Virus record (IMG/VR): IMGVR_UViG_2671181134_000003
Strand: one strand, 5' to 3'
Source: a virus
Lineage: Duplodnaviria > Heunggongvirae > Uroviricota > Caudoviricetes
Length of the DNA stretch: 19,496 bases
Under the pieces are notes generated by a model. That model saw only the letters and a program-made list of their open reading frames with translations, was not told the DNA's origin and searched no databases. Position numbers and translations under genes: made by a program. Shown here in pieces: positions 1-3,822 of this stretch (position 1 is the first letter of the stretch; each line of letters starts with the position of its first letter).

Positions 1-779
1 ACGAACTGGTTGTTAAAGGGATAAATATTTACCCGGATAAGATTACTGTTACTGTGGCGCTGGAAACTGGTGGGTATACGTCACTGTTGTTGCCAAATGT
101 GGTGATTGATCTTGATCGTGTTGAAGGTGCCCCGCTGGAGTTTTACGAAGCTGAGGCGAAAAAGAAGGCGAAGCAGTTTTTCATGGATATTGCTGCCGGG
201 TTATGTGAAGGGAACGAACCGTTGCCGGAAAAGCGCCTTTGTTCAGAAGAGCGGTATACCATACAAATTAACAATGCATATAACACGATACAGTCAGAAA
301 AAGATGATATCGAATCACGCATTGAAAAACTGGAGAACAGCGTCGTTGAACTGAATAAAAAACTGTCGGTGCAGATCCCTTCCGAAGGTGAAAAAAAACG
401 CCGTGATGAGCAGTTCGCGGCGTTTTACGATTATTGCCGGAAAGTGATGAGCAGAAATCTCGCAGAGTGTTTCCGTATTCAAAAAAACAGAGAGCGCTCT
501 GCAAATAGTGAAATTCTGGATAATTTTTTAAAGGGGACGCATCTCGCCAGTGATTGTTTCATTGCTCATTCTTTTGGTGGCTTTCATGAGGCCATCAAAC
601 ATGATGTTGAGAGAAGTCCAGGTATCCTCTGTTCCATTCCCGTAAGCATCGAAATAGACACAAATACGATAACCGGTGAACTCGTTACTGCCGGAGTCGG
701 TATATTCCGTCATGAGGGGAACGATGCCAAAGGTTCCTTTACAAAAATCGGGCCGTTCTTTCTGAAGGTAGAGCGATAG
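1..779 (+). CDS. hypothetical protein, C-terminal part (reading frame open from window start; 5' end outside window)
   Basis: Frame 3 has no stop from nt 3 to TAG 777-779 (about 258 codons). Codon usage looks genuine (CTG/GAA/AAA preferred). No Shine-Dalgarno before the first GTG at 54, consistent with the start lying upstream of the window. Overlaps the 3' end of the convergent - strand ORF by about 250 nt, so one of the two may be a shadow ORF. No family recognised. Confidence 0.45.
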   Translation, partial: ELVVKGINIYPDKITVTVALETGGYTSLLLPNVVIDLDRVEGAPLEFYEAEAKKKAKQFFMDIAAGLCEGNEPLPEKRLCSEERYTIQINNAYNTIQSEKDDIESRIEKLENSVVELNKKLSVQIPSEGEKKRRDEQFAAFYDYCRKVMSRNLAECFRIQKNRERSANSEILDNFLKGTHLASDCFIAHSFGGFHEAIKHDVERSPGILCSIPVSIEIDTNTITGELVTAGVGIFRHEGNDAKGSFTKIGPFFLKVER

Positions 780-1160
780 TTTGTTAAGTACCCATCCGAC
801 AGCTCGCTCATTTTGGTTTATTTTCGTATCGCGAAACAAAAATTCGAAGCGGCCAGATGACGCATGGGTGCAACCAAATACCGGGGCGTATTCATCAACC
901 TTTGGTGTTCCTGAAAACATGCAGTCCGTGCTCTCGAATGCAGATGAATTGCTGTTGATCCACTTAACAAAAGAAAAAAAGGTCTGAATCGCTTGTCTGT
1001 CTGAATATTCAACAAAATCCTCAAGGTGTGTCTCGATCAGTTCCGGGTGTTTACGAAAGTCATAATATTGACCGGGACGATATTTATGAGTGGTTGTTTT
1101 ATCCCATGGTTGTGCTCTGCGTCCCTGTAAACGGAGGTCTGCCGCTGGATAGATAAGCAT
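528..1160 (-). CDS. hypothetical protein (about 210 aa), opposite strand to the phage late genes
   Basis: ATG at 1160-1158 is preceded by AGGAG (complement of 1168-1172) with a 7-nt spacer; stop TAA is the complement of 528-530. It is a long ORF in AT-rich DNA. The ORF-track start at 1229 is rejected in favour of the SD-supported ATG. No family recognised. Confidence 0.5.
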   Translation of the reverse strand: MLIYPAADLRLQGRRAQPWDKTTTHKYRPGQYYDFRKHPELIETHLEDFVEYSDRQAIQTFFSFVKWINSNSSAFESTDCMFSGTPKVDEYAPVFGCTHASSGRFEFLFRDTKINQNERAVGWVLNKLSLYLQKERPDFCKGTFGIVPLMTEYTDSGSNEFTGYRICVYFDAYGNGTEDTWTSLNIMFDGLMKATKRMSNETITGEMRPL

Positions 1161-1290
1161 AAGTAATCTCCTGGTGGAATGTAATCCACGATCATCCGGG
1201 GAAATTAAGAACCCGCCAGTGCCCACCACTGGTGGGGTGAAGGCTTAACATATCCAGGGATTCGGAACCGATAAATCCTGATAAATATCC

Positions 1291-1824
1291 ATGAACACCA
1301 AAATCAAATACGGCCTGTCGGCTGCCGTTCTGGCGCTGATTGCCGCAGGGGCGCCTGCGCCTGATATTCTCGACCAGTTTCTGGATGAAAAAGAAGGTAA
1401 CCACACCACGGCATACCGTGATGGTGCGGGGATCTGGACCATTTGTCGTGGTGCCACCAGGGTGGATGGCAAACCTGTCGTCCCGGGCATGAAGTTGTCG
1501 AAGAAAAAATGCGACCAGGTTAACGCCATTGAGCGTGATAAGGCGCTGGCATGGGTGGAGAAAAACATCCGGGTGCCACTGACTGAACCCCAGAAAGCGG
1601 GGATCGCGTCATTCTGCCCGTATAACATTGGCCCCGGTAAGTGTTTCCCGTCGACGTTTTATAAACGAATTAATGCAGGCGATCGCAGGGGAGCGTGTGA
1701 AGCGATTCGCTGGTGGATTAAGGACGGTGGCAGAGACTGCCGTATCCGCTCAAACAACTGTTACGGCCAGATATCCCGTCGTGACCAGGAGAGCGCGCTG
1801 GCGTGCTGGGGAATCGACAGATAA
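1291..1824 (+). CDS. R: phage endolysin, lysozyme-like (GH24) with SAR-type signal-anchor N-terminus
   Basis: 177-aa ORF. N-terminal weakly hydrophobic Gly/Ala-rich segment (GLSAAVLALIAAGAPAP) is typical of a SAR domain. E-x8-D-x5-T catalytic spacing (EGNHTTAYRDGAGIWT) matches T4/P21-type lysozymes. Position is immediately upstream of the spanins. Confidence 0.9.
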   Translation: MNTKIKYGLSAAVLALIAAGAPAPDILDQFLDEKEGNHTTAYRDGAGIWTICRGATRVDGKPVVPGMKLSKKKCDQVNAIERDKALAWVEKNIRVPLTEPQKAGIASFCPYNIGPGKCFPSTFYKRINAGDRRGACEAIRWWIKDGGRDCRIRSNNCYGQISRRDQESALACWGIDR

Positions 1825-1913
1825 GCAGAATATTTTGCTGAAAAATGACGTTGGCCAACGCGGACGGATAACACGAAATCCTGCGAACTGGCAAAACCTA
1901 AGTGAATAAAAGT

Positions 1914-1955
1914 AAAAACCCCGTTTGTTGGCAGCAAGCGGGGTTTTGTGTTTCT
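1914..1955. terminator. bidirectional intrinsic terminator-like hairpin downstream of the endolysin
   Basis: CCCCG (1919-1923) pairs with CGGGG (1939-1943) around a 15-nt loop. It is flanked by an A-run (1914-1918) and a T-run (1944-1947, then GTGTTTCT), so either strand gives a hairpin followed by U-rich sequence. Confidence 0.45.
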
Positions 1956-1980
1956 GACCTTGGATAAGGCAAGGGAGAAC

Positions 1981-2163
1981 ATGGAAAAGTATAAACGAAT
2001 TCTGTTGAGGTTGACTATGAAAAACGGCCTTGAACTGAAAGCGCCTGTAACTGATGACATCAGCAGAGCGCTGGCTTTTGCTATTAAGTGGGTGGCGGTC
2101 GGTGTTGCTGTGTCCCCGATGCTGTATGGGCTGGCAAAACTGGTCATTGCGTTGAAATCGTGA
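1981..2163 (+). CDS. small membrane protein (60 aa from ATG 1981; in-frame GTG at 1948 is an alternative), one C-terminal TM helix
   Basis: AAGGGAG at 1971-1977 precedes ATG 1981. Basic N-terminus followed by a hydrophobic stretch ([28 protein letters not shown]). Stop TGA at 2161-2163. Confidence 0.4.
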
Positions 2164-2177
2164 AGGGAGGATTAAGC

Positions 2178-2309
2178 ATGTCAGACAAACTCATAACGCT
2201 GGCGAAGATCCTCTGTGTAATTGTCGGCATTTCATTTTCACTAATGCTGGTTGCTCTTTTTCTTTCCATGGCCTGGATGATGTTGTCTTCGTCGGGGCTG
2301 CTGGGGTGA
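2178..2309 (+). CDS. small membrane peptide (43 aa), single TM helix
   Basis: Strong SD GAAGGGAGG (2162-2170), 7-nt spacer, ATG 2178. Sequence [36 protein letters not shown] is almost entirely one TM segment. Stop TGA 2307-2309 overlaps the GTG at 2306 of the next gene (GTGA). Confidence 0.5.
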
Positions 2310-2779
2310 ACATAAACCGAATGCTTTCCGCGTTTATCGTTATTCTGCTGGTGGCCTGTGGAGCGATGTGGATGGCAACAGACCATTACCGTGATAACGC
2401 GATTACCTACAAAGCGCAGCGCGATAACAAAGCCAGTGAACTGAAGCTGGCGAACGCAACCATTACTGATATGCAGGTGCGCCAGCGCGATGTTGCTGCG
2501 CTCGATGCAAAATACTCGAGGGAATTAGCCGATGCGAGAGCTGAAAATGAAACTCTTCGCGCTGACGTTGCCGCTGGTCGTAAGCGCCTGCGGATCAACG
2601 CCACCTGTCCAGGCTCCGTGCGTGAAGCCCCCACCACCTCCGGCGTGGATAATGCAACCGGCCCCAGACTGGCAGACGCCGCTGAACGGGATTATTTCAT
2701 CCTCAGAGAACGGTTGATGACAATGCAGAAGCAGCTGGAAGGGGCACAGCTATACATTCGTGAGCAATGCCTCAGATAA
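2306..2779 (+). CDS. Rz: i-spanin (Rz), inner-membrane spanin subunit
   Basis: N-terminal TM segment followed by [14 protein letters not shown]...[11 protein letters not shown]...QKQLEG, closely matching lambda Rz as I recall it. Start is either GTG 2306 (coupled to the preceding stop) or ATG 2321. Stop TAA 2777-2779. Confidence 0.88.
2532..2717 (+). CDS. Rz1: o-spanin (Rz1), outer-membrane lipoprotein, nested in the +1 frame inside Rz
   Basis: 61-aa ORF entirely inside Rz in a different frame. Lipobox-like LVVSAC followed by a proline-rich stretch ([27 protein letters not shown]) that is near-identical to lambda Rz1. SD GAGGGA sits 8 nt upstream of ATG 2532. Confidence 0.85.
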
Positions 2780-3139
2780 AAACCGGCCAAGGATAATCCG
2801 CTGAAGATTTGCCGGTGGCTAAAGGGGCCAAGCCACCAATTTACGTAATTAGCCACAGAGATACAATATTTTAGTTTACTTATGTATTTCTGAAGCATGT
2901 CTTTGCGCAGTATCGTCGCCGTATTCCCACATGAACAGAGACCGCAGCCCTACCGGGAGACTCCTCTGCGCGAGTGTGCGGGGATAATCAAAAACGATAC
3001 ACACCGGGGTTTACCGCGTTAACGGAGCGCGGCGTTGTCCCCTCATAGTCGCCTGTCCGGTGCGATGGTGGAAGAAACCGGACTACATTGAAAATGATAA
3101 CCATTATCATTTTTGCGGGTCCTCCTGGTGGGGTGGGCC

Positions 3140-3345
3140 TGAACACGGGGCGGGCGGCGCGGAAAAAGGCGCATTTTTGTGATTTTATCGTCATCATCAT
3201 CATAATGGTAACTTATTGTTTTTAATGTGTTTAGCATTAAAAAGATGATGATTGTGGTTGATTTTTGTTCGACATCTTTATATGGCGGCATTTCTTTACA
3301 AAAAAAGAGCCACTTTTGTTCAGCGGTTTATGTGGAGGGATGTAA
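3140..3345 (+). other. candidate cos region (cosN-like GC-rich core about 3145-3162 plus AT-rich cosB-like segment with inverted repeats)
   Basis: ACGGGGCGGGCGGCGCGG at 3145-3162 resembles the lambda cosN region (ACG|GGGCGGCGACCTCGCGGG) and lies about 200 nt upstream of the terS ATG; lambda cosN is about 190 nt upstream of Nu1. The AT-rich stretch that follows has inverted TCATCATC (3191-3198) / GATGATGA (3244-3251) repeats, which could be terS binding sites. The exact nick positions cannot be set from sequence alone. Confidence 0.4.
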
Positions 3346-3822
3346 ATGGACGGCGAGCTGAAAAATATGAAGTTAAATATTAATCAACTGGCAGCCCTTT
3401 CAGGTCTGCACCGGCAGACTGTTGCCGCCAGAATGGCGGATGTTCCTCTTGCACCAGGCAGTAATGAAAAGAAAAAACTGTATCTCCTGACGGATTTGAT
3501 TATTTCGTTGCTGGAAAAACCACCGACTTCCGAAGATGAAGAGATGAACCCACATGATCGGAAGGCATGGTATCAGTCCGAGCGCGAGCGTCTTAAATTT
3601 CAGCATGAAACTGTTCAGCTTGTGCCTGTCAGTGATGTCAGGCGGTCCTTTTCTGTCGTGGTGAAAGCGATAGTTCAGGTACTGGAAACCTGGCCTGACC
3701 GGCTGGAAAGGGACAGAGGGTGGACCGCATCACAACTGAATGAAGTACAGATTGTGGTTGATGAGATCCGCGACACACTGGAAAAGGCAGTCATTGACTG
3801 TTGTGATGAGGCCGATATGTGA
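3346..3822 (+). CDS. Nu1: terminase small subunit (Nu1-like, N-terminal HTH)
   Basis: SD GGAGGG (3334-3339) with a 6-nt spacer before ATG 3346. N-terminus (KLNINQLAALSGLHRQTVAARMADVPL) resembles lambda Nu1 (MEVNKKQLADIFGASIRTIQNWQ...). Sits immediately upstream of terL with a start/stop overlap. Confidence 0.8.
   Translation: MDGELKNMKLNINQLAALSGLHRQTVAARMADVPLAPGSNEKKKLYLLTDLIISLLEKPPTSEDEEMNPHDRKAWYQSERERLKFQHETVQLVPVSDVRRSFSVVVKAIVQVLETWPDRLERDRGWTASQLNEVQIVVDEIRDTLEKAVIDCCDEADM

Follow-up and report, generated by a model that had tools for sequence, protein, structure and literature searches.

Organisation of the R-Rz interval

The window, i.e. the whole 19,496-nt stretch of the IMG/VR virus record IMGVR_UViG_2671181134_000003 (Caudoviricetes), covers the late region of a lambdoid, Shiga toxin (Stx)-phage-like Escherichia coli prophage, in which the lysis genes are followed by terminase and structural genes. 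The present analysis concerns the interval between the endolysin gene R and the spanin gene Rz, which contains a G+C-rich hairpin and two small open reading frames (ORFs) of 60 and 43 codons, termed ORF1 and ORF2. In phage lambda R adjoins Rz. Here the two genes are separated by 481 bp, measured from the end of R at 1824 to the earliest start codon of the Rz frame (GTG 2306). The preliminary description of this DNA had estimated the insertion at about 480 bp and had placed in it a hairpin usable on both strands and two ORFs with Shine-Dalgarno (SD) sequences; the coordinates of these elements were confirmed and the hairpin is predicted to fold on either strand. The features of the interval and its flanking lysis genes are:

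1291 to 1824, plus strand: R, phage lysozyme (PF00959, E-value 1.5e-24) with a weakly hydrophobic N-terminal segment resembling a signal-anchor-release (SAR) segment
1915 to 1957 (stem-loop 1915 to 1947, 33 nt), no strand assigned: G+C-rich hairpin with the shape of an intrinsic terminator on both strands, an A-run before and a T-run after it
1948 to 1980, plus strand: ORF1 leader with the SD sequence AAGGGAG at 1971 to 1977; in the predicted fold GUGUUUCU is paired with GGGAGAAC
1981 to 2163, plus strand: ORF1, exactly 60 amino acids (aa), AAGGGAG located 3 nt ahead of the ATG
1988 to 2017, minus strand: promoter-like site TAGTCA-18 nt-TATACT with 9 of 12 consensus matches
2007 to 2019, plus strand: internal GAGG, 6 nt and ATG (Met13), a candidate second start of ORF1 giving a 48-aa form
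2178 to 2309, plus strand: ORF2, exactly 43 aa, SD sequence AGGGAGG at 2164 to 2170, 7 nt ahead of the ATG
2306 to 2779 (or from 2321), plus strand: Rz, i-spanin (PF03245, E-value 1.3e-48)
2532 to 2717, plus strand: Rz1, o-spanin lipoprotein located inside Rz in a different reading frame (PF06085, E-value 1e-21)

ORF2 had been described as stop/start-coupled to Rz, and indeed its stop codon TGA (2307-2309) overlaps the GTG of the Rz frame (2306-2308) in the tetranucleotide GTGA. This GTG is one of two candidate starts of Rz, the other being the ATG at 2321 chosen by PGAP. Translation from GTG 2306 yields a protein beginning with MNINR, which carries a basic residue ahead of the transmembrane domain and resembles the N-terminus (MNR) of Rz in phage BP-4795, while translation from ATG 2321 yields the uncharged N-terminus MLSAF. 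The product of R is annotated as lysozyme in relatives; its N-terminal segment has a Kyte-Doolittle mean of 1.74 over 19 residues and contains 47% Gly, Ala, Ser and Thr.

Evidence that ORF1 and ORF2 are genes

With high confidence ORF1 and ORF2 are genuine genes under purifying selection, as judged from their matches in the PHROGs database, their recurrence in genomes, their open frames, their ratios of nonsynonymous to synonymous substitution rates (dN/dS) and the ribosome footprint on an ORF2 homologue. ORF1 matches phrog_1115, phrog_4493 and phrog_3246 (E-value 1e-42) and ORF2 matches phrog_4906 (E-value 2e-23), all of them families of unknown function. No match in Pfam (E <= 1), NCBIfam or PADLOC, and hence no unrelated known protein family, was found for either ORF. 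In each of the E. coli matches listed, both carry the PGAP annotation 'hypothetical protein', and the literature search by protein accession numbers and sequence strings gave no match in main texts.

Conservation among related prophages, on which the preliminary description had made its proposal depend together with translation, was indeed observed. Of 5426 complete E. coli genomes, 1037 carry both ORF1 and ORF2 and 1788 at least some part of the pair, among them ATCC 25922, O157:H7 and ST131 strains. Among 44 distinct full-length DNA versions of ORF1 a single one has its frame interrupted, and one of the 43 intact versions begins with ACG instead of ATG; all 19 distinct versions of ORF2 are open. 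Compared with its Salmonella homologues ORF1 has a dN/dS of 0.17-0.25 at a dS of 0.7-0.9, and for ORF2 a dN/dS of 0.23 was obtained at a dS of 1.1; comparable pairs of Rz and R gave 0.21-0.36 and 0.09-0.31, respectively.

Homologues of ORF1 were detected in E. coli, E. marmotae and Salmonella, and all ORF2 matches with an organism name belong to E. coli. The ORF1 family is narrow: a profile search among 1.84 billion representative proteins recovered 21 representative clusters, all of short proteins, and no larger family linked to ORF1 emerged from it. No locus was found in a scan of the GTDB species representatives with the ORF1 alignment.

Translation is suggested by XECs191, the BP-4795-type homologue of ORF2, which has been listed as a novel gene supported by ribosome profiling (RIBOseq) in E. 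coli O157:H7 Sakai (PMC5597208). In lysogeny broth (LB) its footprint reached 12.6 reads per kilobase per million (RPKM), a ribosome coverage value (RCV) of 0.43 and a coverage of 0.55, exceeding the thresholds of 1 RPKM, 0.25 and 0.5, and the protein was assigned to the inner membrane with one transmembrane (TM) segment (PMC5597208). ORF1 was not found in the supplements of the Sakai RIBOseq data.

It seems extremely unlikely that one or both ORFs are untranslated and owe their conservation to RNA or DNA elements or to an antisense ORF located on the minus strand at 1761-2147. In favour of this view, the wobble positions of the antisense ORF coincide with those of ORF1 and its frame remains intact in the related locus L005, where ORF1 has a stop codon, and ORF2 shows only a modest third-position bias (variable sites: 22, 17 and 27 at the first, second and third codon position). 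However, the antisense ORF runs through the hairpin into R without an SD sequence and was therefore treated as a probable shadow ORF, whereas ORF1 and ORF2 both possess an SD sequence and a start codon. Apart from the footprint on the ORF2 homologue, translation is further supported by dN/dS values well under 1 at high dS and by the conservation of the N-terminal pattern and of the MKNG..AP motif of ORF1 at the protein level in distant homologues.

Predicted properties of the two proteins

Both ORFs had been characterised as essentially one TM helix each. This applies to ORF2, which consists of one strongly hydrophobic helix (Kyte-Doolittle mean of 2.89 over 19 residues), modelled by AlphaFold2 (AF2) as a single helix of residues 2-38 with a predicted local distance difference test (pLDDT) score of 88. 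Its charged residues D3, K4 and K10 lie near the N-terminus (net charge +1), and the predicted topology is N-in with approximately eight residues past the TM helix. For ORF1 the characterisation falls short, as half of the protein is a basic hydrophilic region (net charge +6) and its hydrophobic helix is weak. A basic amphipathic helix (residues 2-15) is followed by the conserved turn MKNGLE.xAP and by a C-terminal helix of 38 residues (22-59), the hydrophobicity of which (19-residue maximum of 1.88) is close to that of the SAR segment of R. The AF2 model shows two helices with a mean pLDDT of 76.5. ORF1 has no lipobox, and its basic soluble part is predicted to be cytoplasmic. The N-termini of two ORF1 homologues (P0107 and P0247) are unrelated.

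Two further assignments were considered and rejected. A function as spanin is not compatible with the lack of a lipobox and the basic soluble part in ORF1 or with the short segment past the TM helix in ORF2. The idea that ORF2 represents a duplicated N-terminal TM domain of Rz, based on a shared 'LCV' motif, was abandoned since the alignment scores were within those of shuffled controls for most pairs and the likeness is one of composition.

The bidirectional hairpin ahead of ORF1

In the stem-loop at 1915-1947, 15 pairs enclose a loop of 3 nt; AAAAA lies on its 5' side and TTTTGTGTTT on its 3' side. Its folding energy was calculated as -21.1 kcal/mol on the plus strand (z-score -2.8, with 3 of 200 shuffled sequences being as stable) and as -14.3 kcal/mol on the minus strand (z-score -1.9). 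At least 12 sequence versions of the hairpin occur 5' of ORF1 homologues, for instance those with the arms CCCCGTTTG/CAAGCGGGG, CCCCGGCTG/CAGTCCGGGG, CCCCGAACG/CGATCGGGG and ACGCCCGCACTG/CAGTCGGGCGT. All 12 fold, with energies of -19 to -23 kcal/mol on the plus strand and -14 to -24 kcal/mol on the minus strand, and are flanked by the A- and T-runs. Covariation is weak, compensatory changes being found in 2 of 10 pairs of a MAFFT alignment in which the inner stem is misaligned, and the conservation of the hairpin was judged from the folds of the individual sequences instead.

The sequence 5' of the A-run varies with the context, and the ORF1 leader is conserved across genomic contexts. In BP-4795, where R is followed by ant, the left arm of the hairpin marks the precise point at which homology with the window breaks off. 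Not all variants retain the second, small hairpin that covers the SD sequence (CCUUG...CAAGG). The assumption that the hairpin is a strict partner of ORF1 turned out to be only partly true: the prophage of E. coli JJ1886 retains the hairpin, but a gene for a different peptide of 31 aa comes next.

In JJ1886 (L006, 2290-2850) the R-Rz gap contains four small peptide genes after the hairpin, encoding the 31-aa TM peptide (phrog_6632), an ORF2 homologue, a C-terminal fragment of ORF1 and a 28-aa peptide (MSAELIRAMAFAIRIVAIAVLVWAIRWW). The latter represents a truncated paralogue of the hydrophobic domain of ORF1 (phrog_4493, E-value 4e-6).

The distance of 33 nt between the hairpin and the ATG of ORF1 is too short for a sigma-70 promoter, and the scan of this segment revealed no promoter-like site on the plus strand. 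ORF1, ORF2 and Rz are therefore presumably read only by the Q-modified polymerase, and we infer that the hairpin would insulate them from stray transcription in the lysogen.

Association with lysis genes and predicted role

The synteny census was based on loci retrieved with queries of the ORF1 family and is biased by this method of retrieval. In these loci the genes are arranged in the order endolysin, ORF1, ORF2 or the 28-aa peptide (optional), and Rz/Rz1 or a lipoprotein of 51-60 aa (optional). The three commonest orders in cassettes with a SAR lysozyme account for 92, 11 and 6 loci, and cassettes with a GH108 endolysin, which carry the holins Phage_holin_8 and Phage_holin_3_7, for 32 and 4 loci. 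In phage phiSTEC1575-Stx2k the same block is located behind an M15 endolysin. Salmonella prophages have the order holin_2_3, SAR lysozyme, ORF1 homologue and Rz without ORF2, and Stx phages such as BP-4795 the order R, ant, ORF2 homologue and Rz without ORF1. Endolysin genes of four kinds thus precede members of the ORF1 family, and those of at least two kinds precede ORF2. According to tblastn searches ORF1 is present in 14 phage records, among them the plaque-forming phages PhiR12 and PhiR5, and ORF2 in 276, nearly all of Stx phages and often without annotation of the match. ORF2 lies directly ahead of Rz in the BP-4795, O157 and O111 loci.

An ORF2 homologue ahead of Rz is unannotated in many GenBank records of Stx phages, such as those of Min27, YYZ-2008 and the phages PA2, PA18, PA27 and PA44. 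Hence, a widespread gene is systematically missed in the annotation of Stx phages.

The position behind various endolysins is read as evidence for a link to lysis. ORF1 and ORF2 may be late-expressed accessory proteins of the inner membrane that modulate lysis alongside the holin, the SAR endolysin and Rz/Rz1, an interpretation to which we assign a probability of roughly 45%. ORF2 would be a long-standing companion of the spanins, coupled to Rz and located immediately 5' of it whatever else fills the gap, and ORF1 a mobile cassette, usually with its own bidirectional terminator hairpin just upstream, that combines a cationic N-terminal helix with a weakly hydrophobic C-terminal anchor. Both would be transcribed only late by Q-dependent antitermination, the hairpin blocking stray read-in in the lysogen. 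At the time of lysis the two proteins would insert into the cytoplasmic membrane, where they could tune the triggering of the holin or pinholin or a later envelope step. The earlier suggestion of lysis-timing regulators remains the best guess in this respect.

Several observations weigh against such a role. Neither family seems to resemble any characterised lysis protein, and the proposed function is one that we infer. A permissive insertion site may yield a similar pattern of synteny, and the R-Rz gap elsewhere holds ant, insertion sequence (IS) elements (IS1203 being found in relatives) and other peptide genes. In one Salmonella lineage (L094) ORF1 follows a gene for tail-fibre assembly, is bounded downstream by a terminator of its own and has no recognisable lysis gene nearby. 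Between close relatives the dN/dS of ORF2 rises to 0.5-0.95, and the footprint of XECs191 is marginal and originates from uninduced cultures under one condition only.

Some of these observations would also fit with ORF1 and ORF2 being morons, i.e. cargo in a permissive slot that benefits the lysogen or acts against other phages by superinfection exclusion or immunity and has no role in lysis. The variable content of the gap with up to four different peptide genes, the narrowness of the ORF1 family and the movement of the ORF1 module between unrelated surroundings, one being the end of a tail-fibre operon where terminators flank it, point in this direction. Morons have their own promoter and a downstream terminator, and their presence varies between related phages. 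Presence and absence of the ORFs clearly vary and the module is mobile, but the terminator lies 5' of the gene and no promoter was seen; a downstream terminator is restricted to the L094 lineage. Nevertheless, this explanation appears unlikely, since expression in the lysogen is not expected from genes with no promoter and a blocking hairpin. Moreover, PADLOC gave no match, ORF2 is translationally linked to Rz across the 276 phage records, and the place behind the endolysin is kept in four unrelated cassette types.

That ORF1 and ORF2 serve the SAR endolysin as its functional holin/antiholin pair, the first proposal of the preliminary description, is highly improbable and can be regarded as largely refuted. 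Small TM proteins do adjoin the SAR endolysin gene and no holin gene is found 5' of R inside the window. However, the genome NZ_CP132728 is colinear with positions 1-3400 of the window at 99.2% identity, and in it a class II holin gene stops 17 bp ahead of the position equivalent to the first base of the window. Such a holin gene is present in all relatives examined, the order holin, YdfR and R being common to BP-4795, O157:H7, JJ1886 and PhiR12_1. This layout conforms to the standard cassette of pinholin, SAR endolysin and Rz/Rz1 known from Stx phages (PMC8136144). Class II holins have two TM domains, in contrast to the one hydrophobic helix each of ORF1 and ORF2, and no Pfam holin family was matched even at E <= 1. 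Furthermore, each ORF occurs alone (ORF1 in Salmonella, ORF2 in Stx phages), and both are also found together with Phage_holin_8, Phage_holin_3_7 and soluble GH108 endolysins, ORF1-like genes additionally with M15 endolysins. The preferred interpretation thus assumes accessory proteins rather than holins because of the upstream class II holin, the occurrence of each ORF without the other and the direct neighbourhood of R and Rz in lambda.

Cassettes with a lipoprotein gene in place of the spanin genes

The P27-like and 'cluster C' cassettes (L005, 585-3043; L009, 852-2857; L183, 2013-3831) contain Phage_holin_8, Phage_holin_3_7, a GH108 or M15 endolysin, a 93-aa protein (phrog_33497) and an ORF1-like gene, followed by the optional ORF2 or 28-aa peptide and then by a lipoprotein of 51-60 aa with an LVGC lipobox (phrog_7528). 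No Rz/Rz1 was detected within approximately 2 kb in these cassettes. They may therefore be spanin-less, with small proteins in the usual place of the spanins.

This arrangement is reminiscent of the disruptin gp28 of phage phiKT, a helical peptide of 56 aa with a charge of +7 that is encoded adjacent to the endolysin gene and replaces spanins (bioRxiv 10.1101/515445). ORF1 could accordingly be conceived as a disruptin-like cationic peptide acting on the outer membrane, which would carry out the last step of lysis together with ORF2 and the lipoprotein in cassettes without Rz/Rz1 and would be redundant in the present prophage. With 60 aa, a charge of +6 and a helical structure ORF1 passes the coarse screen for such peptides (<80 aa, >= +4; bioRxiv 10.1101/515445), which ORF2 fails by its charge of +1. 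We consider this very unlikely, as gp28 is hydrophilic and has no membrane segment, whereas ORF1 possesses a hydrophobic helix of 38 residues and stands alongside intact Rz/Rz1 here and in Salmonella. In addition, the spanin search in the GH108/M15 cassettes covered approximately 2 kb, and spanins may be encoded elsewhere in those genomes.

Nucleotide-level constraint at the 5' end of ORF1

Synonymous variation in ORF1 is unevenly distributed, with 0.39 extra synonymous codon variants per synonymous site in codons 3-18 vs 1.41 in codons 19-60, corresponding to a 3.6-fold reduction (binomial p 0.003). Moreover, a stretch of 48 nt is identical in E. coli and Salmonella copies of ORF1 while the dS of the whole gene is 0.71. 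This constraint may result from a minus-strand promoter, an internal start at Met13 or an mRNA hairpin over codons 9-18.

If the promoter-like site on the minus strand (-35 TAGTCA, -10 TATACT) were active, it could possibly direct the synthesis of a cis-antisense RNA of approximately 70 nt that covers the SD sequence and start codon of ORF1 and ends at the hairpin. ORF1 would in this case be a toxic membrane peptide, the leaky translation of which is silenced by the RNA as in type I toxin-antitoxin systems or in sar/ant of P22. The hypothetical RNA folds with -20.3 kcal/mol (z-score -3.15), and the minus strand of the hairpin provides a good U-tail in 12 of 12 variants. The -10 hexamer is retained in every variant and reads TATAAT in four; the replacement K3N converts it into TATAAT, and a change of ACT to ACA turns the -35 hexamer into TTGTCA. 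Precedents in phages are sar and c4 (PMC12197685), sar being likewise a short cis-antisense RNA over the ribosome-binding site of a phage gene, and hokW-sokW of the Stx prophage Sp5, which includes a small membrane-active peptide and affects phage release (PMC8621323).

Still, antisense control of a toxic ORF1 appears rather unlikely. A promoter match of 9 out of 12 with an 18-nt spacer is at chance level (4 sites of such quality were found in the region vs 2.2 expected), and A, G and T all occur at the second position of the -35 hexamer without apparent constraint. The RNA is predicted only: Rfam contains no family matching positions 1-3600 (the best match, with an E-value of 0.38, was an unrelated leader) and the literature search by sequence strings remained without result. 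Unlike classical type I toxins ORF1 has neither its own promoter nor a long 5' untranslated region, and the low synonymous variation can also be explained by an internal start, the mRNA hairpin over codons 9-18 or recombination. As small hydrophobic peptides of 60 and 43 aa with predicted TM helices both ORFs resemble type I toxins, yet no Pfam match to the known families (Hok (PF01848), Ldr, Ibs, TisB and others) was found, and the segment between hairpin and ORF1 showed no plus-strand promoter. A function as small membrane toxins, which had also been suggested, is conceivable.

Alternatively, ORF1 is possibly a dual-start gene with products of 60 and 48 aa similar to holin/antiholin pairs. 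The SD sequence of Met1 is located just 3 nt from the ATG, and many database entries of the ORF1 family start at Met13 (48 aa). Met13 is retained in nearly all homologues, among them most of the distant ones, and the L094 lineage keeps GGAGG at the internal site despite different encoded residues. In one common lineage (L105) the internal GAGG is weakened to GAGA.

In a Salmonella locus (L090, 3968-4003) the conserved leader is separated from the ORF1 homologue by a mini-ORF of eight codons (ATGTGTAGGGAGGTGTATTCCCTGTGA). The mini-ORF includes the SD sequence of the homologue and ends in a stop codon that overlaps the GTG start of that gene (GTGA), an arrangement that looks like leader-peptide coupling.

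A far-reaching combination of these elements would place ORF1, ORF2 and the phrog_7528 lipoprotein in new classes of lysis proteins, representing a fourth or fifth functional component of phage lysis in Gram-negative hosts that most Stx phages would possess, with ORF1 being doubly regulated by a sar-like antisense RNA and by a dual start at Met1 and Met13 that yields antagonist and effector. Judged from the sequence data available this proposal is decidedly unlikely.

Comparison with known lysis systems

By the features tested ORF1 and ORF2 are not members of the holins, releasins, spanins or a known toxin family. Lysis cassettes encode other membrane proteins that set the timing of lysis, for instance the dual-start holins S107/S105 of lambda and S21 71/68 as well as LysA of phage P2. 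LysA has four helices and is encoded between K and lysB, i.e. between the endolysin and spanin genes. The conserved Met13 of ORF1 with its own SD sequence resembles the dual-start motif of the holins. However, the sequences of all these proteins are unrelated to ORF1 and ORF2, each of which has a single hydrophobic helix instead of the four of LysA.

By analogy, the nearest functional precedent is Lcc6 of the Shewanella phage LambdaSo, a single-TM protein of 65 aa that is needed at the holin step in a system of pinholin, SAR endolysin and Rz/Rz1 (bioRxiv 10.1101/2024.01.23.576932). The likeness is one of description and concerns the size of approximately 60 aa, the single TM helix and a phage with the same type of cassette. 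Lcc6 differs in having an N-terminal TM helix and a cytoplasmic tail of 43 aa and in being encoded near xis, far from the lysis genes; moreover, lysis requires Lcc6, while many related cassettes do without ORF1 and many without ORF2.

The releasin gp25 of phage Mu is likewise small and membrane-tethered, is encoded a few genes 3' of the SAR endolysin and modulates the release of the endolysin (PMC9239132). It comprises 99 aa with an N-out/C-in topology and an anionic cytoplasmic domain of 73 aa and stands in for a missing holin (PMC9239132). In contrast, ORF1 is cationic with a C-terminal anchor, ORF2 is almost devoid of a soluble part and a holin is present in this cassette. Neither ORF matched the releasin family DUF2730 (PF10805) in Pfam at E <= 1.

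Mu releasin, LambdaSo Lcc6 and the phiKT disruptin illustrate that small proteins can be essential lysis factors. Lysis of Stx phages frees phage particles and Shiga toxin, and factors that influence its timing bear on the toxin output. The accepted picture of the Stx-phage cassette, consisting of pinholin, SAR endolysin and Rz/Rz1 (PMC8136144), leaves out ORF2 despite its presence before Rz in 276 phage records. ORF1 and ORF2 are thus well-defined candidates that are very common in Stx phages, for which no unusual mechanism is shown here; if they were inert cargo, the finding would be an ordinary one. The ORFs themselves are already contained in databases, and translation evidence has been published for one relative.

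Neighbouring genes

Two further features precede R in the window:

54 to 779: disrupted DUF1327/YdfR-like gene, the leftmost gene of the window
528 to 1160, minus strand: unannotated ORF of 210 aa with the SD sequence AGGAGA, located between the YdfR-like gene and R

No match of the 210-aa ORF was obtained in Pfam, PHROGs, NCBIfam or PADLOC. Its homologues form six clusters only, all from E. coli and Salmonella, with 53-65% identity over the full length, and it lacks annotation in the 99%-identical RefSeq genome. The ORF takes the place of a segment of 303 bp with DUF1823 (minus strand) in PhiR12_1, leaving the DUF1327 gene fused or truncated.

Downstream of Rz no convincing ORF was recognised in the 560 bp (2780-3345) that extend to a DUF1441 gene resembling the small terminase subunit. 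This segment carries the G-rich runs ggtggggtgggcc and ggggcgggcggcgcgg as well as a catcatcatcat run and is presumably the cos or packaging region.

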